A program made the position numbers and the translations under genes. From Diplonema japonicum (lineage: Eukaryota > Protista > Euglenozoa: Diplonemea), in the NCBI GenBank assembly GCA_964019335.1, contig OZ025732.1:310001-374000 (forward strand): a stretch of 64,000 nucleotides of DNA, in the 5' to 3' direction. The notes below the pieces were generated by a model that did not search any database, was not told where the DNA came from, and saw only the letters and a list, made by a program, of their open reading frames with translations. Position 1 is the first letter of the stretch; the number at the start of each line of letters is the position of its first letter. Below, in pieces: positions 5,878 to 52,318 of this stretch.

Positions 5878-6015
5878 ACCGCATCACACGACTCCGCAAG
5901 ACGCTCACGGCCTCTATCGGAATGAAAGCAATGCTCCAGAAGGGGAGTATTAACAGATAGACCCCCCCCTCCCATAGGGCGGCCCTCTAGCGGGGGGCTT
6001 GTCCTGTACTTTGAG
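5878..6015 (+). mobile_element. 5'-truncated 3' end of a LINE B-family copy
   Basis: Matches about 49300-49441, including the terminal hairpin and CTTTGAG; flanked by T-runs. Confidence 0.85.
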
Positions 6016-28250: not shown

Positions 28251-28329
28251 CTCGTGAGGTCATCAGGAAACATATGTTCTCCCCTCTATCAGTTTAGTAC
28301 TCGTATTTATTTCTATTATTTGTATTATC

Positions 28330-29995
28330 ATGTCGAACGATCAGCAGGGGGACAGTAAAGAACCCGGCCCACCTCCAAGTGGTGCCTCTGGGGCCGAGAA
28401 GGATTCGGTGCAGACGGGCCGGGACGGGGCAAAACAGCAAACGTGGGCTGAGCAAGCACGAAAAGCGGTAGGAAAGGTGGTGAAGGTGGACCACACTTTG
28501 TTACCAACGATAGCAAAGGAGCAGAGGACGAACAAGAAGACGCCACAGCAGCAGCAGGGACAAAGGAAGGGGCAGAAGGACTCATTCAGAGCCATCCTGG
28601 GAGCATGGGCGGCACCGAAAGAATGGGAGATGGCGAAGGGAGACCCGAAAGCATCTCTCAAAGCTTTCATGGGGGACGTAGCAGCGGTGATGGGGGAACC
28701 GCTAAAAAGAGAGGGGAGGAAGCCAGGGGAGGAGTGTGTAGACATCCTCATCTGGGTCAACAGGAAGGAAGCAGAAGCCAAGGCAGCCGAGATGAGAGGG
28801 ACTTGGGTGCTAGAGAGAAGGCGGCGAGGAGTGGTCTGGCTGGCCACCAGAGAACTGGGGCGCGCTGTGGAGGTGATGGACAGCGTGAGGAAGGTCAGCA
28901 AGGACGCCTTGCTGACGATGAACGGGAAGGGCTTCGGCGTCCAAGTACAGGACGACGTCGAAGCGGTGAGGAAGCTGGTGGAGCAGGCCAACCTCGGGGT
29001 GACAAAGAAGATCTCATACGATCTTAGAGGTCTCCCCCAGGGAACAACACGAGAGGCCGCGCAGCAGACGGTGGCGGCAACTGGAAGGGGCAGGTGGTGA
29101 GGGTGCTCCCAAAGGAAGGGAAGGTGCTGGCGGTAGTGCAGGCGCAGGAGCCACCAGAATTCGGCGAGATCGACTGGGGGGAGGGACGGGCAGAGCTGTG
29201 GGAGTCCCGCAAACCGCCGGCGAGAGACCGGGAGAGAAGGACGGACCGGAACGACACCGGGCAGTGCAGGGCCAACGATACACACAGAAGCAATTCTGGC
29301 GCCACTACGGCAAAGCAAGGAGCGAGGAGGAGTGGAAGAGTAACGACCCCGTGGTCGGGGCTCAGCCACAACAAGAACAACAACAACAACAAGGGCAACA
29401 ACAAACTCCAACGCAGAGGGAGAGGCAGCTCGAGGAGCAGGTGAGGGAGCTGAAGGAAGAGGTGAAGAAGCTGAGAGCAGCGGTAGCGGCAGCCACGAAC
29501 AAGAGGGCCGAGCCGGGGAAGAAAAGGAAGGTGAGGGAGGATAAAACCCCCTCGATGACGCGGATGCCAGCACCATCACCATCGCCAGTGAAGCAGCAGA
29601 GGGGTGACGCAGCAGAGGTGGTGCCAGGATATGCGGCAGGAACGGCCAACTCCAAGGCCAAGTCCCAGTCCAGGTCAGGGTTAGGGACAGGGCGCAACGG
29701 GAAGGACAGACGCGTAATCAAGCAGGCCGAGCGCGACGAAGGAAGACAGAGGGACTACGACGGGATGGGCAGGAAAGCGCCGAAGCACACCCACCACTGG
29801 GAGGAGCACAAGAGCAGAACCAGGTGGGTGTGCACCAAGTGCGAGCGCAACATGCCGAAGGGTACGTACGCGACCACCTGCAGGCATGGGGAGTGCAAGC
29901 TGCAGAAGTGCAGACGCTGCGTGGAGGGACGGAGGCAGCAGCTGTACTACAGCTCGACAGACGAATCCTCGAGCCTGTCCTCGGGGGAATGGTGA
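28330..29995 (+). pseudogene. LINE A ORF1 (frameshifted): coiled coil and C-terminal Cys/His finger
   Basis: ORF pieces 28330-29100, 29094 onward and 29198-29995; H...CTKC...C...C...CRRC finger parallels the end of LINE B ORF1. Confidence 0.7.
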
Positions 29996-30055
29996 ACGGC
30001 AGGACGCGGTGGAGCGCAGGGGACGGGGACGGACCTGCAAGAGGTAGCGAAGAGG

Positions 30056-33000
30056 ATGCAGTTAGAGTATGAGGAAGTCCCGGGAGACGGGAACTGCCAA
30101 TACTCGGCAATCTCCACCGCACTGAAAAGGGGGAACGCGGCACAACTACGTCAGCTGACCGCCAAGCACATCGCGAAAAACCCCCAAAGATACGGAGGAC
30201 TACTGCAAGCAGAGGATGAGACCGTGGAAGCATACGCGGAGAAAACAGCAAAAGACCGCACGTGGGGGGACCATATCACACTAGAGGCGGCGGCACAGGT
30301 GATGAAGACCAACATCTGGGTCCTGAGGGAGGAAGGAATACAGCGGGCGGCGAGGCCAGAGGACGCAGTGAGCACGATCATCATTGCGTACGAGCCCTAT
30401 CACTACGATGCGATCCACGCACCACGATGTGTCACACGCTGGTTGGAGGGGACGGCGGAGACGCGGGTAGGGATAGAAGAACTGAGAGTGGTAGCGAAGC
30501 GAGGTGCTAAGAAGGAATCGACTGGCCAGACTTCGGATCAACACCAACGGGGGAACTCCCCCGGCCCTGAACGCTGGGGTGTCCTGGATACGAGGACGGG
30601 CGCGAGTCGGAGGCGCGATATCCTCCATGAGAAGTCTGGTAACCCTACAGCCAAAGTCCTAGACTGTAGGGGTGAACGTATAGGCAGCACCAAGCGGAGC
30701 GAACACGAACAGGAACAAAGGACACTGCACCTGACGAGCGTGAACGTGGCGTCGCTGCGCAACAGGCTGGACGACGTAATGAAGCTGGACACCGACGTCA
30801 TCTGCCTACAGGAGACTGCGCTCACTGCAGCAGGACAAGGAGAGACGGCCCACGCTATGAAGGGGATGTGTGGCAAGAATAGGTACAGACCCATGTGGGG
30901 GGACCCACAACCGGGGAGGAAAAAAGAAGGACTGACCTCTATTGACATAGCACAGCGAGGGGGACTCGCGACTTTTGTGAGGGAACCGCGCACGGTGCTT
31001 GGATCATCCTTGGACAGGGACGATGCGACGCCGGAAATGAACCGAAGATGGCAGCACACAAGAGTGAGCGTTGACGGGAAGAACCTCTGGCTACACATCA
31101 TCACAGTGTACTGTCCAGCAGGCGAAGCGGAGGAAAAGAGGAGGCAAAGGGAACAGCTGCTACACCACATCCTGCAGAAGAAGGTGAGAGAGCTGGGGAA
31201 CGTGCCCATAGTGGTAGCCGGAGACCTGAACACAGACGAAGGGAGGTCTCAGGAACTGCGGTACGCGCTACACACGGGGTGGACAGACGCAGCAGCAGCA
31301 TGTGCCATGCAACGAGGAGAGGAGCCCGGACCCACATTCGTAAGAGACAACTGTGCGTCGAGGATAGACTACATACTCCTGAACCCAATTGCGGCGCAGG
31401 CGCTCAAGGGGTGCGAGACGCGGAAGGACGTCAAAGGAGCGGACCACATGACGCTTACCGTGGAGATGGACCTAGGACGGTTCAGGCAGAATATCCAAAG
31501 ATACATGATACCGAAGGAAATCCCGGAACAGCAGCGGAAGCCGACGGAAGAGGAAGGCGAACGGGCGCTTGACGGAAGCGAGTTCCGGAGGCATATGCTG
31601 AGGGACGGAAGGGGTGACATCAACGCGGCGTGGAGGGAGCTGGCCATGGTCAGTGAGAACATGCTGCTGGGAGAGGGACCATCCGACAAGGCGCCGTACC
31701 AGGGCAGGGGGAAGACCCGAAGGCCACAACAAAAAAGACTTTGCGCGCCAACAACCAGAGGAGCGGCAGGAGCGGCATCGACGAAGCAAGTGAAACTCGA
31801 GAGGATGGAAGGAAGACTCCAGGCCGTCAAGATCCAATTGCTAAAGCTTCTACAGCAAGGCGGGGGACAGATGAGCAGGATAACGACGAGAACCATCCAA
31901 AACCTCAACGAGGACCTCCAGAACACGGGTGTCAAGAGCCGGCCCTTATCAGCAGAGGAGACATTGAGGACATCATCGCAGACGCGGAGCTAATGGGGGA
32001 AGCTGTGAAAAGGCGAGAACGGGAACTGGAGAAGGAGCAGAGGGTGGCGAGGAAAAGGAACTACCTCGATTCGGTGGAGAGAGGGGCTGAGACGAGGGAC
32101 TTAGTGGCAGGGATGAAGGGAACGCAAGTGGGACGGGGCACAGCGAGCGTGGAGCTTCAGGGCGCCACGATCGCGAATCCAGAGCAGCTAGACAGGACGA
32201 TGAGAGAACACTGGGAGACGGTATTCGCGAAGTACAAGAACAGACCACAGCCCGGGTACGAGACCTTTAAGAAGGAGTACGGGTCACACATCGTCAGACA
32301 GGAGATGGGAGGAGGCCCAATCACAGGGGAAAGCCTACGGCAAGTGCTGGTGAAGAAAACGGCCAGAAGTGCAGCAGGTATAGACGGCTGGCGGATGGCA
32401 GAGCTGCGTAGGCTCCCAGTGGTGGTGCTAGAGGCATGGGCAGACCTGTTCAACTTCATCGAAGAGACAGGGGAATGGCCGGAGGCGCTGTGTACGGCGC
32501 TGGTGACCTTGGTGCCGAAGTGTAAGAACGCAGGACCACTAGAACACCGACCCATCACGGTCACGTCGGCTGTGTACAGGCTGTGGGCGAGCGCCAGGCT
32601 GCAGGACATCTTGCCGTGGCAGGAGAGGTGGATACACAACACGCAGCATGGGTTCAGAACAAAGCACGGGACGGAGGATGTCCTCATGGAAATAAGCACG
32701 AGGATCGAAGCAGCGGTGATGGACGGAGAGCCACTTGTAGGAGTGGCCCTAGACTTTGCCAAATGTTTCGACACAGTACCGCAGGGGCTGGTGCTGGAGC
32801 TGATGAAGGACATGGGCATGGACGCTGGCATCCTGAGAGCACTCAAGGGCATGTACGACAGCCTCAGGAGAAGGTTCAGGTACGCGACAGGAGTTGGTGA
32901 GGAGTTCGAGACCACCAACGGGATCCTGCAAGGCTGCCCCATCTCGATCATCATGATCAACGCGCTGTTGGCGGTCATGATGAAGAGCGTGGAGCAGAGG

Positions 33001-34803
33001 ACGGGTGTCGAGACCTTGTCGTACGCCGATGACGCATACCTGTTGGCGGCACTCGCAGAAGTACTACGAGAAGCCACAGACACGGTAGGTGCCTTTTGCG
33101 ACATTGTCGGCATGAAGCTGAACAACAAGAAGTGCGAGGTGTTCGCGGCCGGCGGCAAGGCACCAAGGATAAAGGTGGACGGGCGGGAGCTGGGTACTGC
33201 CAACAAGGTGAAGGTACTAGGGGCGAGGTTACGGACGGACGGCAAAGCGCAGAAGGACAACGAGAGGGTCAGGACAGCTATAAACAGGCTGGAGAGACTC
33301 GCGATCACGCCGCTAAGCTATGAGCAGAGGGGGGAGGTACTGCAGACCACTGTAATACCGAGCTGCCTGTACGACGTAGCCTTCTCCCCACCATCGGATG
33401 GATATCTCACAAAACTGACGAAGGTGGCGTCGCGTGCCTTGTGGGGACCGAGGTACAGGACACGAAACCCGGCGGCAGTGCTATCAATCCTCCATAAAGG
33501 ACACACATACGACCCGGAGGTGGCCTCGCCATACCGCGCAATGGCTCTATTCCACAGGGTGCACCAGAAGAAGGGGACAGTGTGGGAGAGATGTGAAAGG
33601 CTGGCAGTAGCATACCGCGAGGAAGGAAGAACAACACCGCTAGGTCCGGTAGGCAATATGCTGCGAAGGTGGCTTCCGAAAGTGGGTCTCGGCTGGACGG
33701 GGTTCACACAGAAGCTGAAGGAAGGGAAGGAACGTTTCGCGCACGAAATGCGGGAGAGGCTGAGGGTGGGACGCTCAAAAAGCATCGAACAGGTAAGGAG
33801 GTCGATGCGAGACCTGGGGGAAGGAGCGGACCCGAGTACGAACGAGCTCTGGCAGCGGCTGAGGAAGAGCAACGATCCGATAGCAGCCAGGGCCTTACAG
33901 CGGGTGATAACCGGGGGAGTTTTCTACATCAACCCCAGGGGGTGGCACACGGACGCCAAGAAGAACATCGAACCGCCGAAGGAGGGAGAGGACACCACCT
34001 CAGAAGAGGAAGAAGAGGAAGAAGAAGAGGAAATGACGCGACCCACGAGGCGGCATCCAGCACAGTACGTCAACTGTGACATATGTGAACACGAGGTGCA
34101 TGAGCACGACATGCTCAAGCACGCGCTGTGGGACTGCGAGTTGGCAAGGGAAATACAAAACAAGGAAGCTAACAGAGCAGTGGTGGAGGAACGGACGGCC
34201 ATGCCGAGGTGCATGCAGCTGCACGGAGTGCTGCCGCGAGGACACGACAAAGAGCATCTCAAGAGCCTGCAGCTCTACCTCCTGGAGGTGGTAACAGAAC
34301 GAGACCGCCGCCTGCAAGAAAAGAGGGCACTGGAGAGGTACACGACTCACCCGTGGGAAGTGATCACAGAAGGAAAAAGACACCCGACACCGACATGGAG
34401 AGAACTACGACAACATGTAGGGGGGGGGCTCATGAAACAGTACGGACAGGAGATCGTCAAATGGCTAGGGCAGCTCAAGTGGTACCGGGGCCCGAGGAGA
34501 ACAACGGTCACGACAATAGAGCTTGCGCTGGACTTCGAGAACAGCACAATGAAGTCGCTGGTGGGTGAACGTGGAGACCTGACACTAATAGGTAAAAAGG
34601 CGAGACGGCTACATGGCCTGCTGGTGAGGCTGCAGGAAGGCTGGCAGGACGCGCGGATAAGGAGGAAGGTCAGGGGACACAGAGCCATACCGGCGGAGCA
34701 ACGGCGGACACGGCCTGAGGACCATAGGGGGGAGAAAGGTCTTGCTGGGACAGAAGACCGCTGCACGTCTCGGAACAGACGAAGAAGGACCTCCAGAAAC
34801 TGA
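30056..34803 (+). pseudogene. LINE A ORF2: OTU + APE endonuclease + RT + CCHC knuckle (frameshift near 31960)
   Basis: VPGDGNC/WG/HYD (OTU); SVNVASL, CLQET, GDLN, SRIDY, ADH (APE); DFAKCFD, QGCPIS, YADD (RT); CDIC...H...C. Confidence 0.9.
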
Positions 34804-35270: not shown

Positions 35271-35602
35271 GGAGTCGGTAGGGGTGCTGGATGTGGTCAG
35301 GGCTGAACCTGTGCCTTGGGTAGACCTGCTAGGTACGCCGAGGGCATCTCTGTCTTCTGCAATCAAGTCATGTATGACCCTTCCCTCACGGAGAAGTCTG
35401 CTAGGTAGAGAGGGCGTGCTCCAATGGACTGAACATTAGTTAAACTAACCTATAGGTTACGCAAAAATAAAATAAATTAAAGAGGTAAAAGGAAATCCCT
35501 GATCTGGGACGTCCTGTCTTGTTCTTCTTCCTGCCCCTATCTCCCTTCAGCGGCTTCGGTCTTTCCTTTTTGGGCTGACCGCTCCCTCATGGCGCTCACC
35601 CG

Positions 35603-36483
35603 GTATCGAGGTGAAAGGAAGGGACTTGTTCGAGGTAGTTGATGAAAGGCAAGGTTGGTACAACGAGGGGGTCTGTGAGGTTGTGAACCTTCTCCTGGAT
35701 GCTGGGGTGGGTGGCAGGAGGAGGAGTCCCTTCACATGGCGGCCAAGCACAATCTTCCTTCTTGTGTGGACGTCCTCTTGACTCGCACTTCTGTGGACGT
35801 GAATTCAGCAGTGTCTTTTCCTGGCGATTGGAGAAGTACGTGCACAGCACTTCATCGAGCCACTTCTGGGGAGGTGGCGGCTGTTCTCTTGAGACACAAT
35901 GCAGATGTCAATGCAAGAGACGGTAGCGGTGTTCCTGTCATTCACGAAGCAGCATGTGGGAAGCAACCTGGGGGCAGGCTTTCTGTACTTCTGAGGTACA
36001 ATGCAGATGTGAATGCAAGAGACAGGGAAGGAAAGACTGCTCTTCATGGCGGCCGGTTCAGTCCTCACCCCTCTGCGACTGCTTCTTGAGCACGGGGCAG
36101 ACGCTGAGGCAGGAGACAACGAGGGAAGAACACCACTTTTCTTGGCTGGTTTAGAGGTGGCTGAAGTACTTCTTGAGCACAATGCTGATGTGAAGGCGAG
36201 GGACAATGTAGGGAACACGTGTCTGCACCACGCTGTGTCACACACTCGGTTTTATGTGTCACCAGTTCTGCTGAGACACAATGCAGATGTGACGGCAAGG
36301 AACGATGGAGGGGAAACGGCTCTCGATCTTCTTCTCTCTGATTTTAGGGACTTTGGGGCCATGCGATACCTGTTGCGGGACCCGAGTCTCGCTCATGATC
36401 TGGAGCTGTTCGAAAGTGGGAGGGAGCTGAGCGACGTCAGCAGGCTTCCTGTTGTTCAACGGATTTCAAGCTTTTTAAGTTGA
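35603..36483 (+). pseudogene. 5'-truncated, frameshifted Ubl-ankyrin family copy
   Basis: Colinear with 41530-42430; split into ORFs 35736-36089 and 36013-36483. Confidence 0.85.
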
Positions 36484-37221
36484 GATAGTAGCGTCCCCGA
36501 GCAGCACTTCACCGGGCCACTTCGGTTAGCGACCCCGCTCGCCCACCAGCTCAGTTTCCACACCTCCCAGACAAAGGCACACCCAGGAGCCCAGCGCCTT
36601 GCTCATTATGGATGAGCAACATGTTGAGGCGAAGCACCAGCTTCAACAGAGATTCAAACAAGAGTCCACCACGCTTAGCAGGAAAATGATCAGCTGTGCT
36701 GAAGCTGCACCACGAGAAGCTAGTCCTCAAGCGGCTACAGGTACGCCACCAACACAGCACAACACATATACAGGCGGAGCTCGACAAGGGCGCAAAAGAG
36801 ATGGATGCTGGGGAAGCCTCTTTCGAGGTAGAAAGCCAGGCAGCAGCACTAAAAACACAGAGGGGATAGTCTAAGCGACAGTATGTGCTATTTAATGGCG
36901 TGCAACTAACACAGATATAAACAAAGCCTGGTTATCGCGGCAAAGAAACGACAGGCCGGGAAGATGCGACAGCTGCAGGGGAGAACAAAAAAGAAGGAGG
37001 ATCTTGACAGGGAGCTGGCACACGCGAAGACCAATCTGAAAAAGATAGAAAGGCTAGTGCAGTCGCTGAGAGCACGGAAAGATGAGCTGTCTGCACAGAT
37101 CGAGGAGTGTGGGCTTTTGCTTTTCCCCCCTTCCTTTCCAGATAGTCGGAAGAGGCAATGCAATTATTTTTTTAACCATTCAATATTGATTGTTGAAAAG
37201 ACAAAACAGGAAATACAGAAG

Positions 37222-38058
37222 ATGAGCGACATGCTACTGTACGCCGCAACAGCAAGGGAGACCTACAGTGTGGAGGTGTCGGGGGTGGACACAATGGAGA
37301 CTCTGTACCATGAGACGGCTTCTAGGACGGGCTTGAAGGAAGGCAGGTTCAAACTGGTTTGGGAGGGGGATGTCCTGGGCAAGAGCAAGTATGAAGAGGT
37401 ACAGGAGACTGGGCTCGTTCATGGCAGTGTGGTCCAGGTGGAGCTGGTGGTGAGAACCTATCAGCAGAAGGAGCTAGCTTCAGAGAGGGAAGAACTGAAA
37501 AGGCTCCTAATTGAAGACCCTGGGATGGTTCTGCAGGTGGAGGTGGACCCTGCTACCGAAGTGCTGTCCATGAGGAGTAGGTGCCTTCCTTCGGGACTTC
37601 GGGGCCTCATAGTCAGCGACCCTACAGGATGTGTTACAGGTGTGGGCAGCCGTTTTCTTGAAGGCTGTGCCCTTGAGTACGTCAGGCTCGTCTTACCCAA
37701 GGCTCACTCTATTAGTTTTAATTTCTTATATGGGTGCGAGGGCCTTCAAACCATCGACATGAGGGAAATGACCAATGTTGCTTCTATTGGTGATTTCTTC
37801 TTATCAGGTTGCAAGAATGTGTCGACTATCGATTTTTGCGAGACGGCACAGGTGGCTACCACGGGTAGCTTCTTCCTGCTAGGGTGTAGAAGCCTGAGGG
37901 ACATTGACTTGAGTGCGATGGCCAATATTGCTTATATCGGTTATTCATTCTTGTTGAGGTGCGAAGCACTTGAAACCATCGTTTTTAGCGGGGGTGCTGA
38001 CAGTTCTGACAAGCTTTTGAGGACTAAGGTACCTGAGGGGGTTAGCATAAGCAGGTAG
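37222..38058 (+). CDS. Ubiquitin-like domain + leucine-rich repeat protein
   Basis: Likely ATG 37222; Ubl-like N-terminus (YSVEVSG...FKLVWEG...GLVHGSVVQV); repeats LxxIDxxxMxNVxxIGxxFLxGC. Confidence 0.8.
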   Translation: MSDMLLYAATARETYSVEVSGVDTMETLYHETASRTGLKEGRFKLVWEGDVLGKSKYEEVQETGLVHGSVVQVELVVRTYQQKELASEREELKRLLIEDPGMVLQVEVDPATEVLSMRSRCLPSGLRGLIVSDPTGCVTGVGSRFLEGCALEYVRLVLPKAHSISFNFLYGCEGLQTIDMREMTNVASIGDFFLSGCKNVSTIDFCETAQVATTGSFFLLGCRSLRDIDLSAMANIAYIGYSFLLRCEALETIVFSGGADSSDKLLRTKVPEGVSISR

Positions 38059-41230: not shown

Positions 41231-42463
41231 ATGAGCGGGAACGAAAGACCACCGACAGTAGCGCTGCAGGCGAGGCTCCCCACCTCTGAGACCATCAGCA
41301 TTGAGGCAGTGGCTTCGGAGGAGATGAAGAAGGTGAAGGAGAGGATCGCATCGATGGGAGGGTTGGATGTGGACATCTTCACCCTCACCTTCGATGGGGA
41401 GGTGGTGGCGGCGGCTTCTGATGACGGCGGTGGACAGCTCGTCGGAGATCTTCCTTTTGAGGATGGAAGCATGCTTGAAGTGGTGGTGTGCAAGAGGCAG
41501 GCGGCTCTGTTGAAGCTTTCTGAGATGGGGATCGAAGTGAAAGGAAGGGACTTGTTCGAGGTAATTGATGAAAGGCAAGGGCGCAACAGAGAGGGGGTCT
41601 GTGAGGTTGTGAACCTTCTCCTGGATGCTGGGGTGAGTGGCAGGGAGGAGGAGTCCCTTCACAGGGCGGCCAGGTGCAATCTTCCTTCTTGTGTGGAGGT
41701 CCTCTTGACTCGCACTTCTGTGGACGTGAATTCAAAAGTGTCTTTACCTGACGATTGGAGGAGTACGTGCACAGCACTTCACCGGGCCACTTCGGAGGAG
41801 GTGGCGGCTGTTCTCTTGAGACACAATGCAGATGTCAACGCAAGAGACAGTGACGGTGTTCCTGTCATTCACGAAGCAGCATGTGGGAAGCAGCCTGGGG
41901 GCAAGCTATCTGTACTTCTGAGGTACAATGCAGATGTGAATGCAAGAGACAGGGAAGGAAAGACTGCTCTTCATGGCCGGTTCGGTCCTCACCCCTCTGC
42001 TGTACGACTGCTTCTTGAGCACGGGACAGACATCGAGACAAGAGACGACCGGGGAAGAACACCTCTTTTCTTGGCTGGTTTAGAGGTGGCTGAGGCACTT
42101 CTTGATCACGGTGCTGATGTGAAGGCGAGAGACAATAGAGGGAACACGTGTCTGCACCACCCTGTTGAAAGAGGCTTGTTCGAGGTGTTACCTGTTCTTC
42201 TGAGGCACAATGCAGATGTGACGGCAAGGAACGATGAAGGAGAAACGGCTCTCGATCGTGTCTACTCTGACAACAGGGACAGGTTGAGGGCGACAGTGCT
42301 CTACGGGGGGGACGTGTTCAAGGCGGTGCGACACCTGTTGGAGGACCCGAGTCTCGCTCATGATCTGGAGCTATTCGAAAATGGGAGGGAGCTGAGCGAC
42401 GTCAACAGGCTTCCTGTTGTTCAACTGATATCTAGAGAGATTGGTAAGAGAAGGAGCCGCTGA
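41231..42463 (+). CDS. Ubiquitin-like domain + ankyrin-repeat protein
   Basis: N-terminal Ubl pattern (LQARLPTSETISIE...VKERI...FTLTFDG...FEDGSMLEVV); several (G)xTxLH...LLxHxADVNARD ankyrin repeats. Confidence 0.9.
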   Translation: MSGNERPPTVALQARLPTSETISIEAVASEEMKKVKERIASMGGLDVDIFTLTFDGEVVAAASDDGGGQLVGDLPFEDGSMLEVVVCKRQAALLKLSEMGIEVKGRDLFEVIDERQGRNREGVCEVVNLLLDAGVSGREEESLHRAARCNLPSCVEVLLTRTSVDVNSKVSLPDDWRSTCTALHRATSEEVAAVLLRHNADVNARDSDGVPVIHEAACGKQPGGKLSVLLRYNADVNARDREGKTALHGRFGPHPSAVRLLLEHGTDIETRDDRGRTPLFLAGLEVAEALLDHGADVKARDNRGNTCLHHPVERGLFEVLPVLLRHNADVTARNDEGETALDRVYSDNRDRLRATVLYGGDVFKAVRHLLEDPSLAHDLELFENGRELSDVNRLPVVQLISREIGKRRSR

Positions 42464-42602
42464 ATGGTACAGGTAGTGGATGAGAACAAGGGTGATTTCA
42501 AAGAGGTTTGCCGGTTTTAGTATTTCGAGGTATGATCACTCCACACGTGCCTCTCGTCACTCCCGGCAGCCTCTGGTCTCTGGCGCTGTTTCTTCATTTG
42601 TT

Positions 42603-42640
42603 ACCAACGATTCTAAAGCTACAGTTTCTGTACTTTATTG
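42603..42640 (+). other. Genomic copy of the spliced-leader exon (38 nt), forming the 5' terminus of LINE B
   Basis: ACCAACGATTCTAAAGCTACAGTTTCTGTACTTTATTG; 3' part CAGTTTCTGTACTTTATTG is the conserved kinetoplastid/diplonemid SL end; 5' part resembles the diplonemid SL (AACCAACGAT...) minus the first A. Confidence 0.9.
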
Positions 42641-42737
42641 GTGTCCGACCGTGCCAATAAAGTTCACACAGCAACGGTTTGAAAAGAAAATACAAATATT
42701 GGAAGTTGAAGCGCGACACAGATCAGCAACGTAAAGG

Positions 42738-42810
42738 AGAAGAGAAGAGAAGAGAAGAGAAGAGAAGAAAAATCGAGTCATATCAGATCATATCAGATCA
42801 TATCAGATCA
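42738..42810 (+). repeat. (AGAGA)n and (CATATCAGAT)n short tandem repeats in the LINE B 5' UTR
   Basis: Read directly from the sequence. Confidence 0.85.
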
Positions 42811-42852
42811 CAGCAAACACATTGACAATCTAAGCAACCGCGTCAGTCTAAG

Positions 42853-45096
42853 ATGGACGTTCACAAAGCTTTGAAGGGGTACGGGATGACAGCCCGCGGG
42901 AAGGGGTACGGGATTGGAAACGGAAACTCCTTCTACGGAGTGGTCGGAGAGAAGACGGGAAAGAAGGGGAGCGACGTTAGGCGCCGCATGATACAAGAGC
43001 TGCGAGGAAGCGAGGAGTACCGGGCGAGTGTCATCGGAGACTACGACCTGTACTGCTCCCAGCACGCCAGGGAGGGGACCGCCGCGGACCCGGTTACTAT
43101 CCAAGCCACCGCCCGCGCACTGAAGACCGACATCCACCTGATTACGGCCGACGACGGCGCCCTCATCGTCTCCCCTATCGTGGGAGAGTCCAAGTCCAAG
43201 AAGCAGCCCATCCACGTCGCCTTCGACGGCCGGGCATACCTCAACGCCACGGAGCCGTTCAACGTGAACGTGCTGAAGAAAGCTATGCAGCAGTTCAAGC
43301 TGCCACGGGTCGGGATTCCAACCTCAGACGGAGAGGCGAAGGCATGGAGGGGACCGAACAGCAAGCCACCACGGAAGGAACCGCAGGCAAAGAAATGCTG
43401 GCTCCTCGAGCAGGGACAGTTCGACCTACCCTTCATAGAGTGGGAAGAGCTGGTGGCAGGGAAAGATGGCATAGCCATCGCGACCGAGGTCAACGTGGAG
43501 GAGGCAGAAAAGATGCCCTGGGACGGGAACAAGGCAGTCCTCCTCAAACGCAACGGCAAGGGTCGATACGAACACGACGTCGTGCTCAAGGCGGCTGGAG
43601 AGTACTCGAACAGGACAATGTTCTTGCACGTACTGAGCGGAAAGATCTCGCGCTCTCAAAAAAACAAAAACACGGTGGGTATTGACCTGGCCGCGATGTA
43701 CACGCGGGTAGCTTTCGTCGTCTCGAAGACGCACACCCCAGCCCAGACTTGGGAGAGGGTGACCTCCGAACCCCGCAAGCTGGTCCAGGAGATGCTGGGC
43801 TGTAAGACGATCCACAGGATCGACAAGTACGTGGATGGACCGGCCCCAAGGGTTGACGTGCTCGTCACGATCGCAACCGAGAACCGCCGCCGCCTCGTAA
43901 GTGCATCCGGGAAGATGGGGATCTTCGTCAAGCCGAAGGACGTGGAGAAGTCCCCTGTCGCCTGGCTCCCGAAGGAGATCACTCTGGAAGAGGCACTCGA
44001 GCTGGCGGAGACTGAGAAGCAGGGGTTAGCGCTGCGCGAATCCGACGGCCGTCTCGGGGTGAGGACATCGGAGGAGAGGAAAACCACGCTCCTCGACAAG
44101 GTATTAGGCGAGGAGGAGCGACAACGCGGGCAGCATGGGGAGCCCAGGTGGCGTTTGTCGGGACTGTACGGGCAGTGCGGAGCCGAACACGTTGAGGCGA
44201 TACTCGAGGCGATTAAGTGGGAGGCCGTCCCACTACACGGCGGATGGTGCAACAGCATGAGGTGCTGGTACATCCGAGGGGGCGAACCCCCAACCACGTC
44301 ACTGAAGATCACGTCCCCAACTGGGCGGGTCCTCAACTGCAGGATAGCTCCCGACGTTAGAAACCCACCCACCAAAAAGACACCGCCAGCTCAGTCCTGG
44401 GGAAGGCCGAAAACGGGGACCACAAACAACGCGGGCAAGTCGTACCTCGGAGCAGTGACGGGGTCCTCTCAACCAGACCACAAACCACCAGCTGCAGGAA
44501 AGAAGGTTGCCCCTACGGGTAAAGCCGCCCCACCGAAGTCCGGTAAGTCGCCCACAACATCGAAGAAAGCCGATCCCCCGGCCTTTGAGGACCGCCTCAC
44601 AGCAATCGAAAACGCACTTCGTAAACTTGCAGGGGAACCGGTCAGCGACGTCAAGCCGCCGGCTGAGGTGGTCAGTCTACGGAGGGAGAACGCGGAGCTA
44701 CGGGAGGAGGTCCGGCAGATGCACATCCAGATGGCCGCGCTCACCGAGCAAATTAAGAGACTCACGGAAGCGACGCTCTCGAAGCCCGTCCCCGGGAACC
44801 GGGCCCCGATGATGCGCCCTGCTGCCGGGGAGGAGATGATGGACGACTCCGAAGATGACTTGGGTCCCCCCCCAACTGACGATGACACCGACATCGACCT
44901 GGACGAGGGCCCCGCCGACATTGACGACTGCCTGGGCAAGGGCATCTGCCACGTCTACAACGGGACATATCAATGCTGGAAGGGTGTATGCCACTACTGC
45001 GGCGGGAACATCACAAAGAACAACCCAGCACAGACCTGCATATTACCAGACTGCAAAAGGGTAAAATGCCGCGGGTGCGAACAATGCGAACAATGA
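42853..45096 (+). CDS. LINE B ORF1: pseudo-OTU N-terminus, coiled coil, C-terminal Cys-rich finger
   Basis: 747-aa intact ORF; GNGNSFY...VRRRMIQEL...TIQATARALKTDIHLI...IHVAFDGRAY; LRRENAELREEV coiled coil; CHYC...C...C...CRGC. Confidence 0.8.
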   Translation: MDVHKALKGYGMTARGKGYGIGNGNSFYGVVGEKTGKKGSDVRRRMIQELRGSEEYRASVIGDYDLYCSQHAREGTAADPVTIQATARALKTDIHLITADDGALIVSPIVGESKSKKQPIHVAFDGRAYLNATEPFNVNVLKKAMQQFKLPRVGIPTSDGEAKAWRGPNSKPPRKEPQAKKCWLLEQGQFDLPFIEWEELVAGKDGIAIATEVNVEEAEKMPWDGNKAVLLKRNGKGRYEHDVVLKAAGEYSNRTMFLHVLSGKISRSQKNKNTVGIDLAAMYTRVAFVVSKTHTPAQTWERVTSEPRKLVQEMLGCKTIHRIDKYVDGPAPRVDVLVTIATENRRRLVSASGKMGIFVKPKDVEKSPVAWLPKEITLEEALELAETEKQGLALRESDGRLGVRTSEERKTTLLDKVLGEEERQRGQHGEPRWRLSGLYGQCGAEHVEAILEAIKWEAVPLHGGWCNSMRCWYIRGGEPPTTSLKITSPTGRVLNCRIAPDVRNPPTKKTPPAQSWGRPKTGTTNNAGKSYLGAVTGSSQPDHKPPAAGKKVAPTGKAAPPKSGKSPTTSKKADPPAFEDRLTAIENALRKLAGEPVSDVKPPAEVVSLRRENAELREEVRQMHIQMAALTEQIKRLTEATLSKPVPGNRAPMMRPAAGEEMMDDSEDDLGPPPTDDDTDIDLDEGPADIDDCLGKGICHVYNGTYQCWKGVCHYCGGNITKNNPAQTCILPDCKRVKCRGCEQCEQ

Positions 45097-45189
45097 CTCC
45101 ATGAGGGCTCCCCCCAAACCCACCCCCCAAACCCATTCCCTCCGCCCCGTTCCCATCCTTCCAAATACAATCCGATACGCTTATCTGAC

Positions 45190-48100
45190 ATGAAATTTGA
45201 ACGTCTCACCGAACAGGGTATCGAACCCCACCCCGGACCAGAGCCAGAACACGAGAAATTCACCATTTTCACACACAACGGCTCATCACTTAACAACAGG
45301 CTGAGCGAGTACTCCACCGTCCTCCCGGACGCATTCTGCATCCAGGAGACAGCCCTCACGGCTCAGACGCAGCTGGAAATCGAACACGTGCTGAGAGACG
45401 ATGACTGGGGCAAACGATACGCCAGATTCTGGAGCAAGCCACAGCCAGGCAGGGAGTCCAGTGGTGTCACATCTCTGACGATAGCGAAACGGGGTGGTCT
45501 AGGAACCCTGGTGAAAAAACCACGTACGGCGGTGCGCTGTGAAACGAATGGGCCGCACAGGGACAGGTGGTCACACGTGAAGATCTCACTCGATGGAAGC
45601 AAACGGTGGCTTCACCTGATCAACGTCTACTGCCACTCGGGTCAGGACCAAGCCAAGACGAAATACCGTGAAGAGCTTCTCCACTACATCCTTTGCCGTC
45701 TTAAGTTCGAACTGGGAGACGTGCCTGTGGCCGTGGTGGGCGATTTCAACACGGACGAAGTACGATCCCCCACGTTAAGGAAAGCTATACAGACAGACTG
45801 GGTAGACGCCGCTGCGTTCTGTGCAAGAAGGGATGGTGTACAGGCGGAGGACACGTTCGTTAGGACCAACTGCAGCACGAGGATTGACAGGGTCCTGCTG
45901 AATAACATCGCGGCCCAAGGTCTCGAACATTGCGGAGTAAGCGATATGATCACCGGGTCGGACCACCGATGCTTGTCGGTGACACTCAACATCCCAGCTT
46001 TTCGTCAAGAAGTCCTGAGGTACACCATCCCACAGGAGATACCGAAGACCAAGAAGGCGCCTGGCGAGGTGGCGAAGGCACTGATGCAGAAGTCGAGGTA
46101 CCGGGAGTTCATAGCAGCACAGGAGCCCACCGAAGCTTTCTCGGAGATATCAGACCTCGCAGAGGAGTACCTATTACATGGGTACAAGGGGCCGACGCGC
46201 AGCGTGTACACCGGGAGAGGCAAAGTACGGGAACCTACGAAATCGGAGCTAAGTGCGAGGTCGGCGGAGTCGGCGGTCGGAGCGGCATCGAACAGACAAC
46301 AAAGACTGGAAAAGCTGAAGCACAAGATCCGCAGTGCGCAACAGCAAATGCTAAGGCTTTATGAAAACGGACACTGCGGTCCGCTGCCGGTAGAGTTACG
46401 GAACGTCCTCAGAAATATTGCGACACTAGGAGAAGAACTGAAGGTTGACAACTGCCAGGTGGACGCGACAGGGGGTATCGACGGCATCAGGGAGGAGCTG
46501 GACATAGCAGAGGACTTCGCTCAGGGAATGCTATCAGAGCTACTCCAATACCGCAAGAGAATGCAGACGAAGGCCTACGAACGCTCAGTCCGTGCTGACT
46601 TTGGGAAAGAACGCAAGCATATCACAGCCTGGGTCAGAGACCGCCCAAACCAGAGAACGGACGTGGTTGAGGTAGCAGACGGGGGGGTGACGGCGAACCT
46701 ACAGGAAATGGACAAGGTGATGCGGAACGCGTGGTCGGGCGTCTTCTGTGCGCGAACACTCGAGGAAGAGCCACAGTATGAGCGGTTTGCACAACGTTAC
46801 GGGGACCTGATCAAGAAAGCCCCAATGGCACGGACTCCCATCACAGCAGAACAGCTGAGGGAAGTGATCAGGAAGAAGCCGGAGAAAGGAGCATGTGGCG
46901 TGGACGGTTGGCGGATGAGTGAACTGAAGCGTCTCCCAACGAGCATCCTGAAGGCTTTCGCAGACCTCTTCAACCTGATCGAGGAAACAGGCCAGTGGCC
47001 GAGACAGATCACGACAGCACTGGTGTCCCTGATTCCGAAGGGTGAGGGGTCAGCACCACTGAATCATCGTCCCATCACAGTGACCAGCACCATCTACCGC
47101 TTGTGGGCGTGTACGAGGCTGAAGGGTGTCCTTGACTGGCAAGAACGCTGGATCACGCCGAGACAGCACGGGTTTCGACCCAAACACAGTACGACAACTG
47201 CCCTCATGGAGTTATGTACCAAGCTGGAACTAGCTCTGGTGGAAGGAGAACCGCTGGAAGGACTAGCCCTAGACTTTCGAAAATGCTTCGATCTAGTGCC
47301 ACAACGGCTGTCTCTCGACCTCATGGACGCCCTGGGGATGGACCAATCCATAGGGAGAGCACTCCAAGGGATGTACACCCAAATCACAAGGAGGTTCAAG
47401 TACCCCATAGGAGTGGGAGAAACATTTGAGACAACGAACGGCATTCTCCAAGGATGCCCCCTGTCAGTCATCGTCGTCAACGCCCTGTTGTCCATCATGG
47501 TGCGGGCAGTCGAGCAAGTCGCGCCAGACGCCGAAGTGCTAGCCTACGCTGACGACGCATACCTGCTGGCAAAGCTGCGTGGCTCACTACAAGCTGCGGT
47601 CAATGGGACATTGGAGTTCTGCGACCTGACGGGGATGGAAATCAACAAGGAGAAGACTGTTGGTTTCGGCACTGCTGAAGATTTCAAGTCGAAAGTCATA
47701 GGAAACCGAACGGAGATGAGGAAAGGCTTGGAGGTCGCGGTACCCTACAAGACGGTGACAGACCTCTGCGGACTGGGGGTGAAGATCAACACACGCAGGA
47801 CAGGAACGACGTGGAACAAACCGACCACGGGGGCGCTTGGCTCGCTGGACCGACTGGGGGGCACAAGGATTGCTTTCGAAACCAAAGCACACTTGGTCAG
47901 CACGACGGTCCTGCCATCTTGCCTATACAGTGGGCCGTTCTCCCCTCCATGTGATGAGGCACTCAAGAAGCTAACGACGAAGATCACTTGTAACCTGTGG
48001 GGCCCTCATCACCGTGGACGGTCGCCCACCGCGGTAAACACAGTCCTGCTGAAGGGGCACACCAATGACCCCCTTTCCTACGTAATGTACCACTCCCTGA

Positions 48101-49383
48101 AGGTAGTATCCGGAGCACTCGATGACAGTCGGCTACGGCAGAGATGCATGCAGATCGCTGCGGGGTATGACGCGGGTTCCATCCCGATGGGGCCGGTTGG
48201 CAACCTGGTCTGCCGGTGGCTTCCCCGAATAGGATGGAGTTGGGCGCAGCTACTAGGTTGCAACACATCTTGGGCCGAACGCGGACACATCTTTAGAGAG
48301 GTGGTGAGGAAGGCCCGAAGTAGGACGCTGGCGGTCGAGAGGAGCACGATAAGCGGGATAGAGCCGGGGGCGGACCCCAAGACGAACCGATTATGGAGGA
48401 CGGCCAAGGACCCGCTCATGTCCTACAGCCTGAGACGAGTGATCGCAGGAGGGGTTCCCTACCTAAACCCGCACGCAAATGCGAAGCGAAAGAGCGTCCC
48501 ACTGGCGCCTGAAGGTGACGACAACGGTGACGACGAGGAGAACATGGGCCAGGCACCAACGACGGAGGTATCGCACACGCAAGGATTCAGATGCGACCTG
48601 TGCAAGTCTCCACACCCGGACACGGTGACCTTACTCCGCCATCAGCTGTATGAGTGCGCCTGTGCACAAGAGGAACTGGCACTAGACGGAATGGAGCCGT
48701 TGCGCAACAGATCAGGATGGCCCCTATGTCTGGAGCTGCACGCGATACTGCCGAGGGGGCATGTCTTCGCACACCTGGAGAAGCTGCAGCGATACATGGC
48801 TGTGGTGGTCGGGAAACGGGATGTGGAGCTCATGCAAATAGACAACGCCAGCACACAGCCGCTGCCGTGGGTACGCAATGTGGAGGGAAGGAGATGCCTC
48901 GTGCCAACGGCGGGGGAGCTCGAAGGAGTGGGAGGAATCGTCGCAGAATTCCTGAACCCGCTGCTGCAGTGGTTGTCACAGCTACGATGGGTGAAGGAGG
49001 ACACCAGCTCTGAAGTGTCAGCGGTGGAATTGGCCATCGACTTCGAATGGACGACAGGCAAGTTACTGGGGGGTCTGCTGGAAGATAGGGCTCGCAAGAT
49101 CAAAGCACTGATAAGAAAGCTGAACGCGGCATGCAGGGCACGGAAGAAGCCACGCCCCTTCCCAGCAGATGAACAGAAGAGAGTGAAGTCCCTCATCGCA
49201 ATAGGTGGGAAGACGGCTATGGGTTTCGCCAGGAGGCCCATCTTCGCCACCCACACCACTCACGACAAGCTGATGGAACTGAAAGCCGCTTACAAGCGAG
49301 ACCGCATCACACGACTCCGCAAGACGCTCAAGGCCTCGATTGGAACGAAAGCAATGCTCCAGAAGGGGAGTATAAAAAGATAA
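45190..49383 (+). CDS. LINE B ORF2: 2A-like peptide + APE endonuclease + RT + CCHC knuckle
   Basis: 1397-aa intact ORF; GIEPHPGP; CIQET, GDFN, TRIDR, SDH; DFRKCFD, QGCPLS, YADD; CDLC...H...C; no RNase H seen. Confidence 0.92.
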   Translation: MKFERLTEQGIEPHPGPEPEHEKFTIFTHNGSSLNNRLSEYSTVLPDAFCIQETALTAQTQLEIEHVLRDDDWGKRYARFWSKPQPGRESSGVTSLTIAKRGGLGTLVKKPRTAVRCETNGPHRDRWSHVKISLDGSKRWLHLINVYCHSGQDQAKTKYREELLHYILCRLKFELGDVPVAVVGDFNTDEVRSPTLRKAIQTDWVDAAAFCARRDGVQAEDTFVRTNCSTRIDRVLLNNIAAQGLEHCGVSDMITGSDHRCLSVTLNIPAFRQEVLRYTIPQEIPKTKKAPGEVAKALMQKSRYREFIAAQEPTEAFSEISDLAEEYLLHGYKGPTRSVYTGRGKVREPTKSELSARSAESAVGAASNRQQRLEKLKHKIRSAQQQMLRLYENGHCGPLPVELRNVLRNIATLGEELKVDNCQVDATGGIDGIREELDIAEDFAQGMLSELLQYRKRMQTKAYERSVRADFGKERKHITAWVRDRPNQRTDVVEVADGGVTANLQEMDKVMRNAWSGVFCARTLEEEPQYERFAQRYGDLIKKAPMARTPITAEQLREVIRKKPEKGACGVDGWRMSELKRLPTSILKAFADLFNLIEETGQWPRQITTALVSLIPKGEGSAPLNHRPITVTSTIYRLWACTRLKGVLDWQERWITPRQHGFRPKHSTTTALMELCTKLELALVEGEPLEGLALDFRKCFDLVPQRLSLDLMDALGMDQSIGRALQGMYTQITRRFKYPIGVGETFETTNGILQGCPLSVIVVNALLSIMVRAVEQVAPDAEVLAYADDAYLLAKLRGSLQAAVNGTLEFCDLTGMEINKEKTVGFGTAEDFKSKVIGNRTEMRKGLEVAVPYKTVTDLCGLGVKINTRRTGTTWNKPTTGALGSLDRLGGTRIAFETKAHLVSTTVLPSCLYSGPFSPPCDEALKKLTTKITCNLWGPHHRGRSPTAVNTVLLKGHTNDPLSYVMYHSLKVVSGALDDSRLRQRCMQIAAGYDAGSIPMGPVGNLVCRWLPRIGWSWAQLLGCNTSWAERGHIFREVVRKARSRTLAVERSTISGIEPGADPKTNRLWRTAKDPLMSYSLRRVIAGGVPYLNPHANAKRKSVPLAPEGDDNGDDEENMGQAPTTEVSHTQGFRCDLCKSPHPDTVTLLRHQLYECACAQEELALDGMEPLRNRSGWPLCLELHAILPRGHVFAHLEKLQRYMAVVVGKRDVELMQIDNASTQPLPWVRNVEGRRCLVPTAGELEGVGGIVAEFLNPLLQWLSQLRWVKEDTSSEVSAVELAIDFEWTTGKLLGGLLEDRARKIKALIRKLNAACRARKKPRPFPADEQKRVKSLIAIGGKTAMGFARRPIFATHTTHDKLMELKAAYKRDRITRLRKTLKASIGTKAMLQKGSIKR

Positions 49384-49611
49384 CCCCCCCTAACCCACCC
49401 AAGGGCGGCCCTCCATGAGGGGGTTTGTCCTGCACTTTGAGTTTGTTTCGTCATCAGCGGCCATCTATCAGTTCCTCCTAGTGTAGACAAGCACTACGAC
49501 ATCCACACGCTGGAGCACATCCTCATCAAAGACCCGAAGAGGGCAATCAGGTACCTTCCTTATTTTTTGGGGCCTTCTTCCAGCATAGCCGGTTCCAGAA
49601 GTTCTTTTTTT

Positions 49612-52318
49612 AGCAGACCACCCGCCGATCACTCATAGGCCCGCTTGACGACCAGGACTTCCTCACGGAGAAAGCAAGCCAATAGAATGCGATATCTCTT
49701 GGGTCGCATCCAGAAGCCAGAAGAGTGCAGAGAAAGGGGGACGCACTGCTTTCCCTGCCAAAGCTAAGTCGAGGGTGCATACCTTGCGACATATGGGGGG
49801 CCCGACGGCACACGGCTACGACAGGAGACCACTCTTCTCCTCGAGCCAAACAGCCCCTTACCTTCGCGACTCCATGTAATGTTCCTCGCCCAGATGCCGT
49901 CCATCTCATCGCGACAAACAGCCACCGCAGGCACCAGACAGCAACCGCAGAACGGTGACCGATTAGTGTGAAAGGATGATAAAAACAAGACTCAGCTATA
50001 TGCTGGAAGACCCCACATCGAACCTGCACAAACTCTGTCACACACAAGCCGGATTTCAAGCAGGCCGAACAACAATAGAACAGATTGCAGCCCTCACACA
50101 GAGGCTAAAGGACGGCCAGAAAAAGAAGAAGATCACCTACTCTATATTCCTTGACTTCGAAAAAGCCTTCGACACGGTCCAGAAAACAAAGCTAATGGAG
50201 AAGCTGACAACCATGAAACTCCCACCGCTATACTTGAACTGGATCGGCGCCTTTTTACAAAACAGACAAGCAGCTGTGAGCTTAGAAGGGGTGACAAGTG
50301 ACAGCCGCGAAAAAGAAGAAGGCGTACCGCAGGGAACGGTGCTCTCACCGCTGCTGTTCCTGTTCTACGTGGACAACATAGCGAAAGCCCTTGAGGAGGA
50401 AGGACAAGGGGTCTTTGCATCGCTGTACGCGGACGACATGGCAGCAGTGATCATCGCTGATAACCACGCTGAGGCACAAGAGAAGGCGCAAAAGGTACTA
50501 GACAAAATAGACACATGGGCCAAGGAGTGGGGCCTGAAGCTGTCCCGCAAAAAGACTTGCTACATGAGGACGGGCGGTAAGGCGAAAGGCGCACTGTACT
50601 TCACAGACGGCACGCAAAAGACGGAGGTGCAGTACGAGAAAAACCCCATGTTCCTGGGAGTGAGGTTCGACGAAGAAGTGAACTTTAAGGCACACGTGGA
50701 ACACGTCATCATCCGACTTGATGAGAGAATCAGGGTGATGCGAGCGCTGGCAGGCACGGAGTGGGGGAGTATGGCGTCCACCCTCAGGGCGCTGTATCTG
50801 ACGTACGCACTGCCAGTAGTGACATATGCGCTCGGGGTGTACGGACCTACACTAGGAAAGGAAGAAATCAAGGACCTGCAAGTGATGCACAACATAGCGG
50901 CCAGATGCATCACCGGATGCAAGCGAACGACCCCTGTCGAATCCCTATTAAGGGTAGCCCGGCTCTGGCCAATCGAAGACATGATAGGATATGAGACATC
51001 CACATGGTACGAACGGTTCCGGAGAATGGAAGGCACCAGCGGACAACTGGCGACGCAAGGTGAAGGAAAGGAAGAGCGGTCGTGGCTCCACAAGGCCCGA
51101 AAACGAGAATGCCCACGAGCTCCACTGCACAGGAAGGCAGCCATCCCACCGTGGGAGTGGAACACGCTGGAAAATTTGTGCATTAGGACAGAAGGCGAGG
51201 GGACAAAGAAGCTGGAAGTGACGAAACAGAGAACGGCTGCCCTCGAGATGATCGCCAAGCTCCCAAAAGCCGACATCACCGTCTACACCGATGGGTCAGT
51301 CGAAGAGGGCAAGGGCGGCGCAGGAATCGTGATTGAAAGGGCCGAGGGGACGGCGACAGAGATAAGCGTAGGCGTCTGCAACCTGTGTGACAGTTTTCAA
51401 GCAGAGATGAACGCCATCAACACGGCGCTAGCGAGGCTCGTGAAGGAGGACACGCAAGGGGCGCAGATCAACCTGCTGACAGACTCTATGGCGTGCCTGC
51501 AAAAGCTTAAGCAAGGTCCCGCAAAGCAACAAGAAGACATGGTGGTCGAGGCATGGCACAACATACACGCACTGACAACGAGAGGAAACCACCTCACATG
51601 CTGCTTTATCCCAGGCCACTGCGGAATAGAAGGAAACGAGAAGGCAGACCAACTCGCCAGCAACGGCAGAGACAAGGAAGCAACACAGAAGATCAGCATG
51701 GGTGCAGCGAAGAACTACATGAGAAAAACCGGAAAGCAGGAAATATTAGCAAGGCTAAATAAGGAAAAGACATACAATAAGTGGGCAGGTAGAACGGAAG
51801 CACCCAAAAGGATGGAAGGGCTGAACAGGAAGGAAGAGGTGCTGATCAACCAGCTGAAGACTGGGCACCATGACCTGCTGAAGGTAGGATACGCCGAGCA
51901 GCGAATTTGCGTAAAGTGTGGCCCCAACACGAAGCGAACCCTCCAACATCTCTTCCTAGACTGTCCGTCATCCAAAGCAAGCAGGGACAAACACTTCGAC
52001 ACCCTGACGCTGAGACACATCCTTGCGGAGAACCCACGAAAAGCAATCCAATATCTCGAAGATACCGGGGACCTGCCCCCCTCCGCAACAACTCCACAAC
52101 AACCAACTAACCTGCCGAAGTAGCATGCCAATCAGAAGGCGGCTGAGGCACTTCTGATTCATTCAGAATCCCGAGATCCCATCCCAGATCCCCAATCCTG
52201 TTTCTCGCAGAAACAGAGAACACCACCAACCCCCCCACTACAGCAGCCGACGAGACAGACGTAGCAGTGAAAATAAAAAAGCCCCCCTGAACAAGTTTTC
52301 CCCCACCCCTATAACGTG

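Follow-up and report, generated by a model that had tools for sequence, protein, structure and literature searches.

Here, we describe the junction between the two open reading frames (ORF1 and ORF2) of LINE B, a long interspersed nuclear element (LINE) in a 64,000-nt stretch of the genome of the diplonemid Diplonema japonicum (assembly GCA_964019335.1, contig OZ025732.1, positions 310,001 to 374,000 of the forward strand; hereafter the window). LINE B is a non-long terminal repeat (non-LTR) retrotransposon of the APE type, in which an APE endonuclease is followed by a reverse transcriptase (RT) within ORF2. Its ORF1 ends in a UGA, after which an open linker leads in the same frame into ORF2, where a 2A-like peptide ending in PGP (the xPGP motif) precedes the endonuclease. 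This junction is real and conserved, and from its sequence we infer how it would be translated. Readthrough of the UGA is, on balance, the likely route to ORF2; readthrough together with real skipping at the 2A-like peptide is a possibility that we put forward tentatively. A small share of ribosomes would read through the conserved UGA-CU into ORF2, which would yield much ORF1 protein and little ORF2 protein, as in gag-pol expression. The fusion would subsequently be split at the xPGP motif to free APE-RT, possibly through 2A-type skipping that is weak. With weak or no skipping, the working enzyme would be the ORF1–ORF2 fusion.

In the window copy, the stop, the 31 open codons and the in-frame ATG lie exactly where the earlier note on this DNA had placed them (Table 1), and translation returns the same ORF2 start peptide, MKFERLTEQGIEPHPGP. 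The next in-frame AUG after the one at 45190 is found at 45946 (residue 253), at the end of the endonuclease and past the conserved APE residues N30 and E53. The evidence that carries the argument comes from other copies of LINE B, which were read as contig differences in five sequencing runs (X1, X3, X5, X8 and X13; coverage by X13 is confined to 45192-45245, outside the stop). The differences of two sister subfamilies, B1 and B2, are tabulated completely for the zone 45081-45209, and the region beyond 45245 is partly visible. Subfamily A, the window's own, spans the junction unchanged or nearly so in contigs of X1, X5 and X8. Subfamilies B1 and B2, seen in X1, X3 and X8, are 12-13% diverged from the window copy: B1 (X1 record 1, X3 record 7) has 24 differences in 196 nt, and B2 (X1 record 2, X8 record 16) has 25 differences and one 6-nt insertion. 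The nucleotides TGA-CT (45094-45098) are identical in B1 and B2, whereas 9 of the 27 positions across 45081-45107 vary, resulting in a stop context of UGA-CUC in A and B2 and UGA-CUA in B1. Neither sister has a stop in the linker, and the sole indel (+6 nt) keeps the frame. At the site of the ORF2 AUG (45190), both carry AAG; no listed change makes an in-frame AUG in the linker and no new AUG arises before the PGP, with a downstream AUG being possible in the partly visible region.

We favor readthrough because the sister subfamilies keep the UGA and the open frame yet have lost the ORF2 AUG. The loss of the AUG is explained equally well by reinitiation; the kept frame and stop context are not. 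Changes in B1 and B2 are mostly synonymous both at the end of ORF1 (5/6, P = 0.003) and in the 2A codons (4/7, with G-x-E-P-H-P-G-P intact), indicating selection on both ORFs. The in-frame UGA and linker noticed in one copy therefore recur in its sisters, with no linker stop, frame-shifting indel or sense codon in place of the UGA in either. The suggestion that UGA-C is a leaky context also stands, as UGA-CU(A) has been demonstrated to be leaky in fungi and human cells, according to the available text of PMC4207609.

The recurrence of an in-frame UGA across related families is suggestive as well. Among 12 metagenome loci, L004, L005, L007, L008, L010 and L012 contain no APE N-terminus and are excluded from the count; the remaining six include sequence upstream of the APE. 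Of the seven families with a readable junction, five have ORF1 and ORF2 in frame across a single UGA (LINE B, LINE A, L003, L006 and L011/L001; P = 0.045 against 1/3). L003, L006 and L011 each have a long ORF upstream, which by eye is coiled-coil-like or Cys-rich and continues in frame across one TGA; the TGA of L011 is shared by its relative L001. From its sequence, the L011/L001 junction is the clearest parallel to that of LINE B: a UGA is followed by 31 codons and the canonical GDVEQNPGP, and the first Met lies inside the APE domain (residues 104 and 124; QET at 71). LINE A (28258-34803) is a related family in the window itself, present as a decayed copy with frame breaks near 29050 and 31990, in which an intact-looking OTU deubiquitinase domain (GDGNC) precedes the APE. 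The predicted first helix of this OTU domain (residues 14-20; block pLDDT, a model confidence score, of 83) lies upstream of the first Met, which speaks for readthrough; phmmer alone did not extend the domain upstream of that Met. No 2A-like motif was found in a six-frame scan of LINE A, and the D. japonicum protein P0046 is 99.8% identical to LINE A over 475 aa.

A number of observations weigh against readthrough. Shuffled linkers (n = 20,000) are open in the given frame in 55% of cases, and the linker is still open after 12 random substitutions in 79%. The chance of an in-frame open linker in a single copy is thus ~18% (55% open x 1-in-3 frame), so that one copy alone is not beyond chance and the linker becomes meaningful only because it is conserved in relatives. 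Its composition (48% C, 10% G) is unlike that of both ORFs, and its changes in B1 and B2 are synonymous in 9 of 20 cases (P = 0.08), a score that is better than in the other two frames. The L011/L001 linker similarly has 4 synonymous versus 5 non-synonymous codons (17 versus 4 in the APE), and contains conserved GUGs. Compared with shuffles, no local stem-loop was detected 3' of the LINE B stop (z +0.68 and -0.41); among six linkers tested for local structure, only that of LINE A reached z -2.6. Unlisted differences are present in two X3 contigs that cover the stop and are short and of low depth (records 11-12). Among the related families, L002 and L009 end the upstream ORF in UAG and have ORF2 in another frame with its own Met, and in L003 and L006 a Met is present at the APE start or ahead of it. 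Homolog P0044 also appears to be out of frame, as its upstream frame resembles an off-frame of ORF1; with P0044 included, the ratio becomes 5/8 (P = 0.09, hand-computed). Moreover, the identity of the stop in 5/5 in-frame families is weak evidence because 63% of the off-frame stops in these elements are UGA anyway, and the +4 base varies among these families (C, C, C, A, U). The binomial P value overstates the case, because of the kinship among the families, which intermix on a quick version of the tree that leaves their order largely open and from which LINE C was dropped (no BLAST match). As a separate observation, ORF2 of L009 (2340-2480) and of P0044 lies in the -1 frame and overlaps ORF1.

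Ribosomes could instead terminate at the UGA and reinitiate independently of an AUG within the linker, either at the near-cognate AUA (45175) or at the AUG/AAG codon (45190), a scenario that we regard as possible. The xPGP motif would in that case trim or tolerate a variable N-terminus. Translation of human L1 ORF2 is described as AUG-independent reinitiation in the available text of PMC11485995 and PMC5972666. Reinitiation would also fit the in-frame AUA, which is unchanged in all three subfamilies and counts against readthrough, the linker, which is C-rich, unstructured and weakly constrained as protein, and the out-of-frame ORF2s of L002 and L009. However, it predicts neither the kept frame and stop (5/7 families in frame, with a 6-nt insertion as the sole linker indel) nor the UGA-CU/UGA-CUA context. 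Alternatively, the frame and the stop might be an inherited accident, with subfamily A using ordinary AUG reinitiation and B1 and B2 being non-autonomous and moved in trans. The AUG of the window copy, 14 codons before the PGP, and the single-copy chance given above would agree with this, yet B1 and B2 differ from each other at ~13 sites here and nonetheless share the AAG, and the synonymous changes on either side of the linker indicate selection on both ORFs, making an accident unlikely.

Expression of ORF2 from its own mRNA, with spliced-leader (SL) trans-splicing using an AG inside the pyrimidine-rich linker or close to it, seems improbable. The host is a euglenozoan, the region between 45105 and 45215 lacks any AG, and a few X3 contigs pass from 45128 into C/A-rich loose ends, as trans-splicing might predict; against it, the AGs are not conserved (those at 45104 and 45216 are changed in B1, and new AGs arise), B1 and B2 would still be without an AUG before the APE, and no SL-joined contig is present among the joints or loose ends listed. 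Loose ends in the linker occur in both X1 and X3, in the form of C/A-rich tails that follow 45128 and of a poly(T) run attached ahead of 45142, and these are possibly the result of polyadenylation, truncated insertions or assembly noise. Least probable of all is the proposal, raised by the earlier note, that the UGA is decoded as selenocysteine (Sec) or Cys in extension of a C-x-x motif, or that it arose by a TGC>TGA mutation in a single fused ORF. The window copy does read C-E-Q-C-E-Q-stop, but B1 has Ser in place of the last Cys, which is missing from the D. japonicum Trinity gene DN1058, a homolog without C-x-x periodicity. The ORF1 of DN1058 is 46% identical and ends at the same register (CRSCMEGGW versus CRGCEQCEQ in LINE B); its ORF2 protein has a called start inside the APE. 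The register and the called start, both read at the protein level, also speak for readthrough. A mutation specific to the window copy is refuted, because the stop is conserved in three subfamilies and falls at the same register in DN1058. In addition, UGA behaves as an ordinary stop, as it terminates 8 (LINE B ORF1 included) of 13 long ORFs that were checked in the window, and a search for a selenocysteine insertion sequence (SECIS) gave no Rfam match in 42500-50000 at E<=1 and no crude pattern in the 3' untranslated region (UTR) or the linker.

The second part of the proposed readthrough route concerns the 2A-like motif. Its relaxed core, G[IV]Ex[NH]PGP, matches once in the six frames of the window versus 0 times in 30 shuffles. 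An xPGP motif precedes the APE in 25 of the 53 homologs that have an APE start and >=22 residues preceding it, which makes the position of the motif a feature of the clade, with forms that range from the canonical GDVExNPGP to GEASNPGP. The earlier note had likened the LINE B motif to the D(V/I)ExNPGP type of L1Tc/Ingi elements, an assignment that falls, as LINE B lacks the Asp and does not match the class A 2A pattern (G/H)D(V/I)ExNPGP; its relatives L011 and L001 do match it. Instead, the LINE B core L-T-x-x-G-I-E-P-H-P-G-P resembles class B 2A peptides in Leu12, Thr11, Pro5 and His4, and differs from them in a Lys at the invariant Trp16 (with a Phe one position off, at 15), a Gln for Glu9 and, in B1 and B2, an Ile for Thr11. 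The full class B pattern, WxxxL/VxxEG(I/V)Ex(N/H)PGP, is thus not matched; the core fits only without the Trp and with E/Q allowed. Class B peptides need both the identity and the register of the Trp, and His is weaker than Asn, according to the available text of Rao et al. (PMC12338488). Similarly, the accessible part of a screen (10.64898/2026.09.24.754024) contains no highly active class B peptide among retroelements. These points speak against skipping, which is uncertain because the motif resembles a class B 2A yet lacks the essential Trp. The same variant, F-x-R-L-T-x-Q-G-I, is carried by P0044 and is thus maintained. Altogether, skipping between the Gly and Pro of the LINE B motif appears plausible, perhaps weak; if it does occur, a class B 2A would work without its Trp in a native host. 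Two side observations concern this motif. X5 record 18 matches only the 2A-like core (window 45204-45239, 6 differences in 36 nt), and its upstream flank reads W-I-R-D in frame (hand translation), which would make it a Trp-bearing class B 2A. Furthermore, L002, L003, L009, P0049 and P0050 contain a hydrophobic, signal-peptide-like stretch before their xPGP motif.

The 11-mer that the earlier note had seen both directly after the stop and in the 3'-terminal hairpin does recur (45097-45107 and 49411-49421), and a third copy, missed in that note, lies on the minus strand at 47201-47211. As a conserved element it was rejected: after the stop, B2 departs from it by 3 changes and B1 by 5, and in the 3' hairpin a different loop is found in 3/3 other 3' ends aligned. 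Within 42853-49460, 16 distinct 11-mers repeat. The pairing of 45096-45108 with 47200-47212 gives a 13-bp helix that is the longest perfect inverted repeat in LINE B and links the surroundings of the stop with the RT gene. In a post hoc test, only 1/300 synonymous shuffles placed such an arm at 30 nt or less from the stop, but an equally stable duplex was found in 10/60 random windows; the 5' arm, the only one on which B1 and B2 were read, is not conserved in them. The RT-gene site could pair with either the stop region or the 3' hairpin, possibly acting as a mutually exclusive long-range switch, which we offer as a lead only. A broader scheme, which we consider doubtful, would extend to a wide protist LINE clade: UGA readthrough would set the ORF1:ORF2 ratio, a Trp-less class-B-like 2A would free APE-RT, and, in this subfamily, the helix between the RT gene and the stop, for which the 3' end competes, would shut down readthrough at the start of reverse transcription.

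Table 1. Features of LINE B and of the LINE A junction in the window.
Feature	Coordinates	Strand	Remarks
ORF1	42853..45096	+	747 aa, stop TGA; no Pfam match
ORF1 coiled coil	~residues 604-643	+	Predicted
ORF1 Cys-rich C-terminus	44947..45087	+	Putative zinc-binding; similar to ORF1 ends of LINE A (E 5e-05) and P0109
UGA stop + CU	45094..45098	+	Unchanged in B1, B2; inferred readthrough site
Linker	45097..45189	+	31 open codons, Pro-rich, 48% C
Near-cognate AUA	45175..45177	+	In frame; unchanged in B1, B2; candidate reinitiation start
ORF2 first AUG, window subfamily	45190..45192	+	AAG in B1, B2
ORF2	45190..49383	+	1397 aa; APE endonuclease and reverse transcriptase
2A-like peptide KFERLTEQGIEPHPGP	45193..45240	+	Class-B-like core; putative skip between Gly (45235-37) and Pro (45238-40)
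Inverted-repeat arm	47200..47212	+	13-nt perfect complement of 45096-45108; also complementary to the 3' 11-mer
3' UTR	49384..49455	+	Short, small hairpin; element end near 49448-49455; no SECIS match
LINE A junction	29993..30058	+	ORF1 ends in UGA, in frame with OTU-APE ORF; first AUG 20 codons later

ORF2 of LINE B contains the Pfam domains PF03372 (APE, residues 45-259) and PF00078 (RT, residues 615-826), and its closest PDB matches are L1 ORF2p and R2 RTs. The closest homologs of ORF2 are D. japonicum transcript proteins (67% identity), and ORF1 is 46% identical to the D. japonicum transcript protein P0207/P0109. Members of the LINE B clade come from D. japonicum, D. ambulator, Sulcionema and metagenomes; a single-protein metagenome scan returned no relative. 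The element is multi-copy, with 3' fragments at window positions 5878, 21426 and 22046 and several subfamilies in the sequencing runs. A check for a target-site duplication gave a sole match of 8 nt (42540 and 49502), probably by chance. Pfam found no RNase H match in LINE B, and membership of the Ingi/L1Tc clade was rejected on account of the two ORFs and the missing RNase H match, with no named reference being present in the tree. The fold model of ORF1 has low confidence (mean pLDDT 36). A search with ORF1 against proteins of near-equal length gave no match; homologs came from a representative search, in which no protein among the 150 matches listed spanned the stop. An Atlas comparison returned nothing above 0.9, with RRM_1 and DUF4780 as leads below that value. 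By eye, the N-terminus of ORF1 (window 42853-43250) has the look of a degenerate OTU domain (GNGNS versus GDGNC), a resemblance unsupported by Pfam, pairwise BLAST or fold prediction.

Directly 3' of LINE B lies LINE C (49976-52123), a 5'-truncated RT-RNase H element that ends near a poly(A) at ~52320, and the sequence at 49640-49970 resembles, by eye, the C-terminal tail of another family (P0204). Genes encoding ankyrin repeats and BspA-type leucine-rich repeats (LRRs) are dispersed among the LINEs (35602-36470, 41231-42463, 56876-58090, 36964-38058 and 59754-60911), some of which have a weak ubiquitin-like match at the N-terminus. No tRNA genes were found in the 64-kb window.

How LINEs translate ORF2 is an open question, as stated in the available text of PMC3894237. 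In a protist genus that can be cultured, the diplonemid family provides natural controls, namely sister subfamilies with versus without the AUG, relatives in versus out of frame, and canonical versus degenerate 2A motifs. Readthrough and reinitiation should therefore be separable with few reporter constructs. The junction of this family is not described in the available text of PMC10161547 or PMC12278014. Our literature search, which was not exhaustive, found no description of a leaky stop combined with a downstream 2A in a LINE.

Each half of the junction does have known counterparts. For the stop, the comparison is with Paramecium, which belongs to a ciliate clade with a different genetic code. 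In Paramecium tetraurelia, 12 consensus elements of the Group 3 non-LTR retrotransposons are labeled 'in-frame stop', and readthrough was proposed from their sequence only (PMC5405496, available text). Like LINE B, these APE-RT LINEs have one stop between an ORF1 and an ORF2 that share a reading frame; their ORF1 often ends in a zinc finger, ~35-45 codons separate the stop from the APE, and sister groups use other junctions. Unlike for LINE B, no 2A-like motif is mentioned in that text. Viral type II (UGA-CUA) readthrough and the long-range or C-rich readthrough signals of tombusviruses and luteoviruses share with LINE B the UGA-CU(A), a C-rich tract after the stop and a possible long-range helix, which resembles the long-range readthrough switches of tombusviruses (PMC5382211 and PMC4207609, as far as available). 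LINE B differs in lacking a stem-loop ~8 nt downstream, in having 5 CCNNNN units (a number reached by 2% of shuffles) versus the 8-16 of luteoviruses, and in the 5' arm of its helix, which is not conserved in B1 and B2. Human L1 and SART1, with its UAAUG coupling, resemble LINE B in having a bicistronic LINE mRNA, a short inter-ORF spacer and low ORF2 output, and they use termination-reinitiation (PMC5972666 and PMC11485995, available text). A comparable AUGA overlap in LINE B was rejected, as the AUG that overlaps the stop (45093) starts an off-frame ORF of 3 codons and is missing from B1 and B2.

For the 2A-like peptide, one parallel comes from a pseudoscorpion. Two ORF1-2A-ORF2 cases are noted in this animal in the available text of PMC13405545. 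A 2A-like peptide directly upstream of the APE is likewise found in L1Tc/Ingi and in Rex1/L2/CR1/Crack elements, which are mostly single-ORF with GD(V/I)ExNPGP, whereas LINE B combines a complete ORF1 with an in-frame stop and lacks the Asp (PMC3708506 and PMC3894237, available text). According to the same sources, 20% of L1Tc copies carry an N>H variant, DIEQHPGP, which reduces activity, and the few known elements with an ORF1 and a 2A (CR1-26_BF and others) have no readthrough described in the text available. LINEs with an in-frame stop, as in Paramecium, and 2A peptides in LINEs are thus already known, and it is the pairing of such a stop with a 2A-like motif in LINE B that is apparently new.

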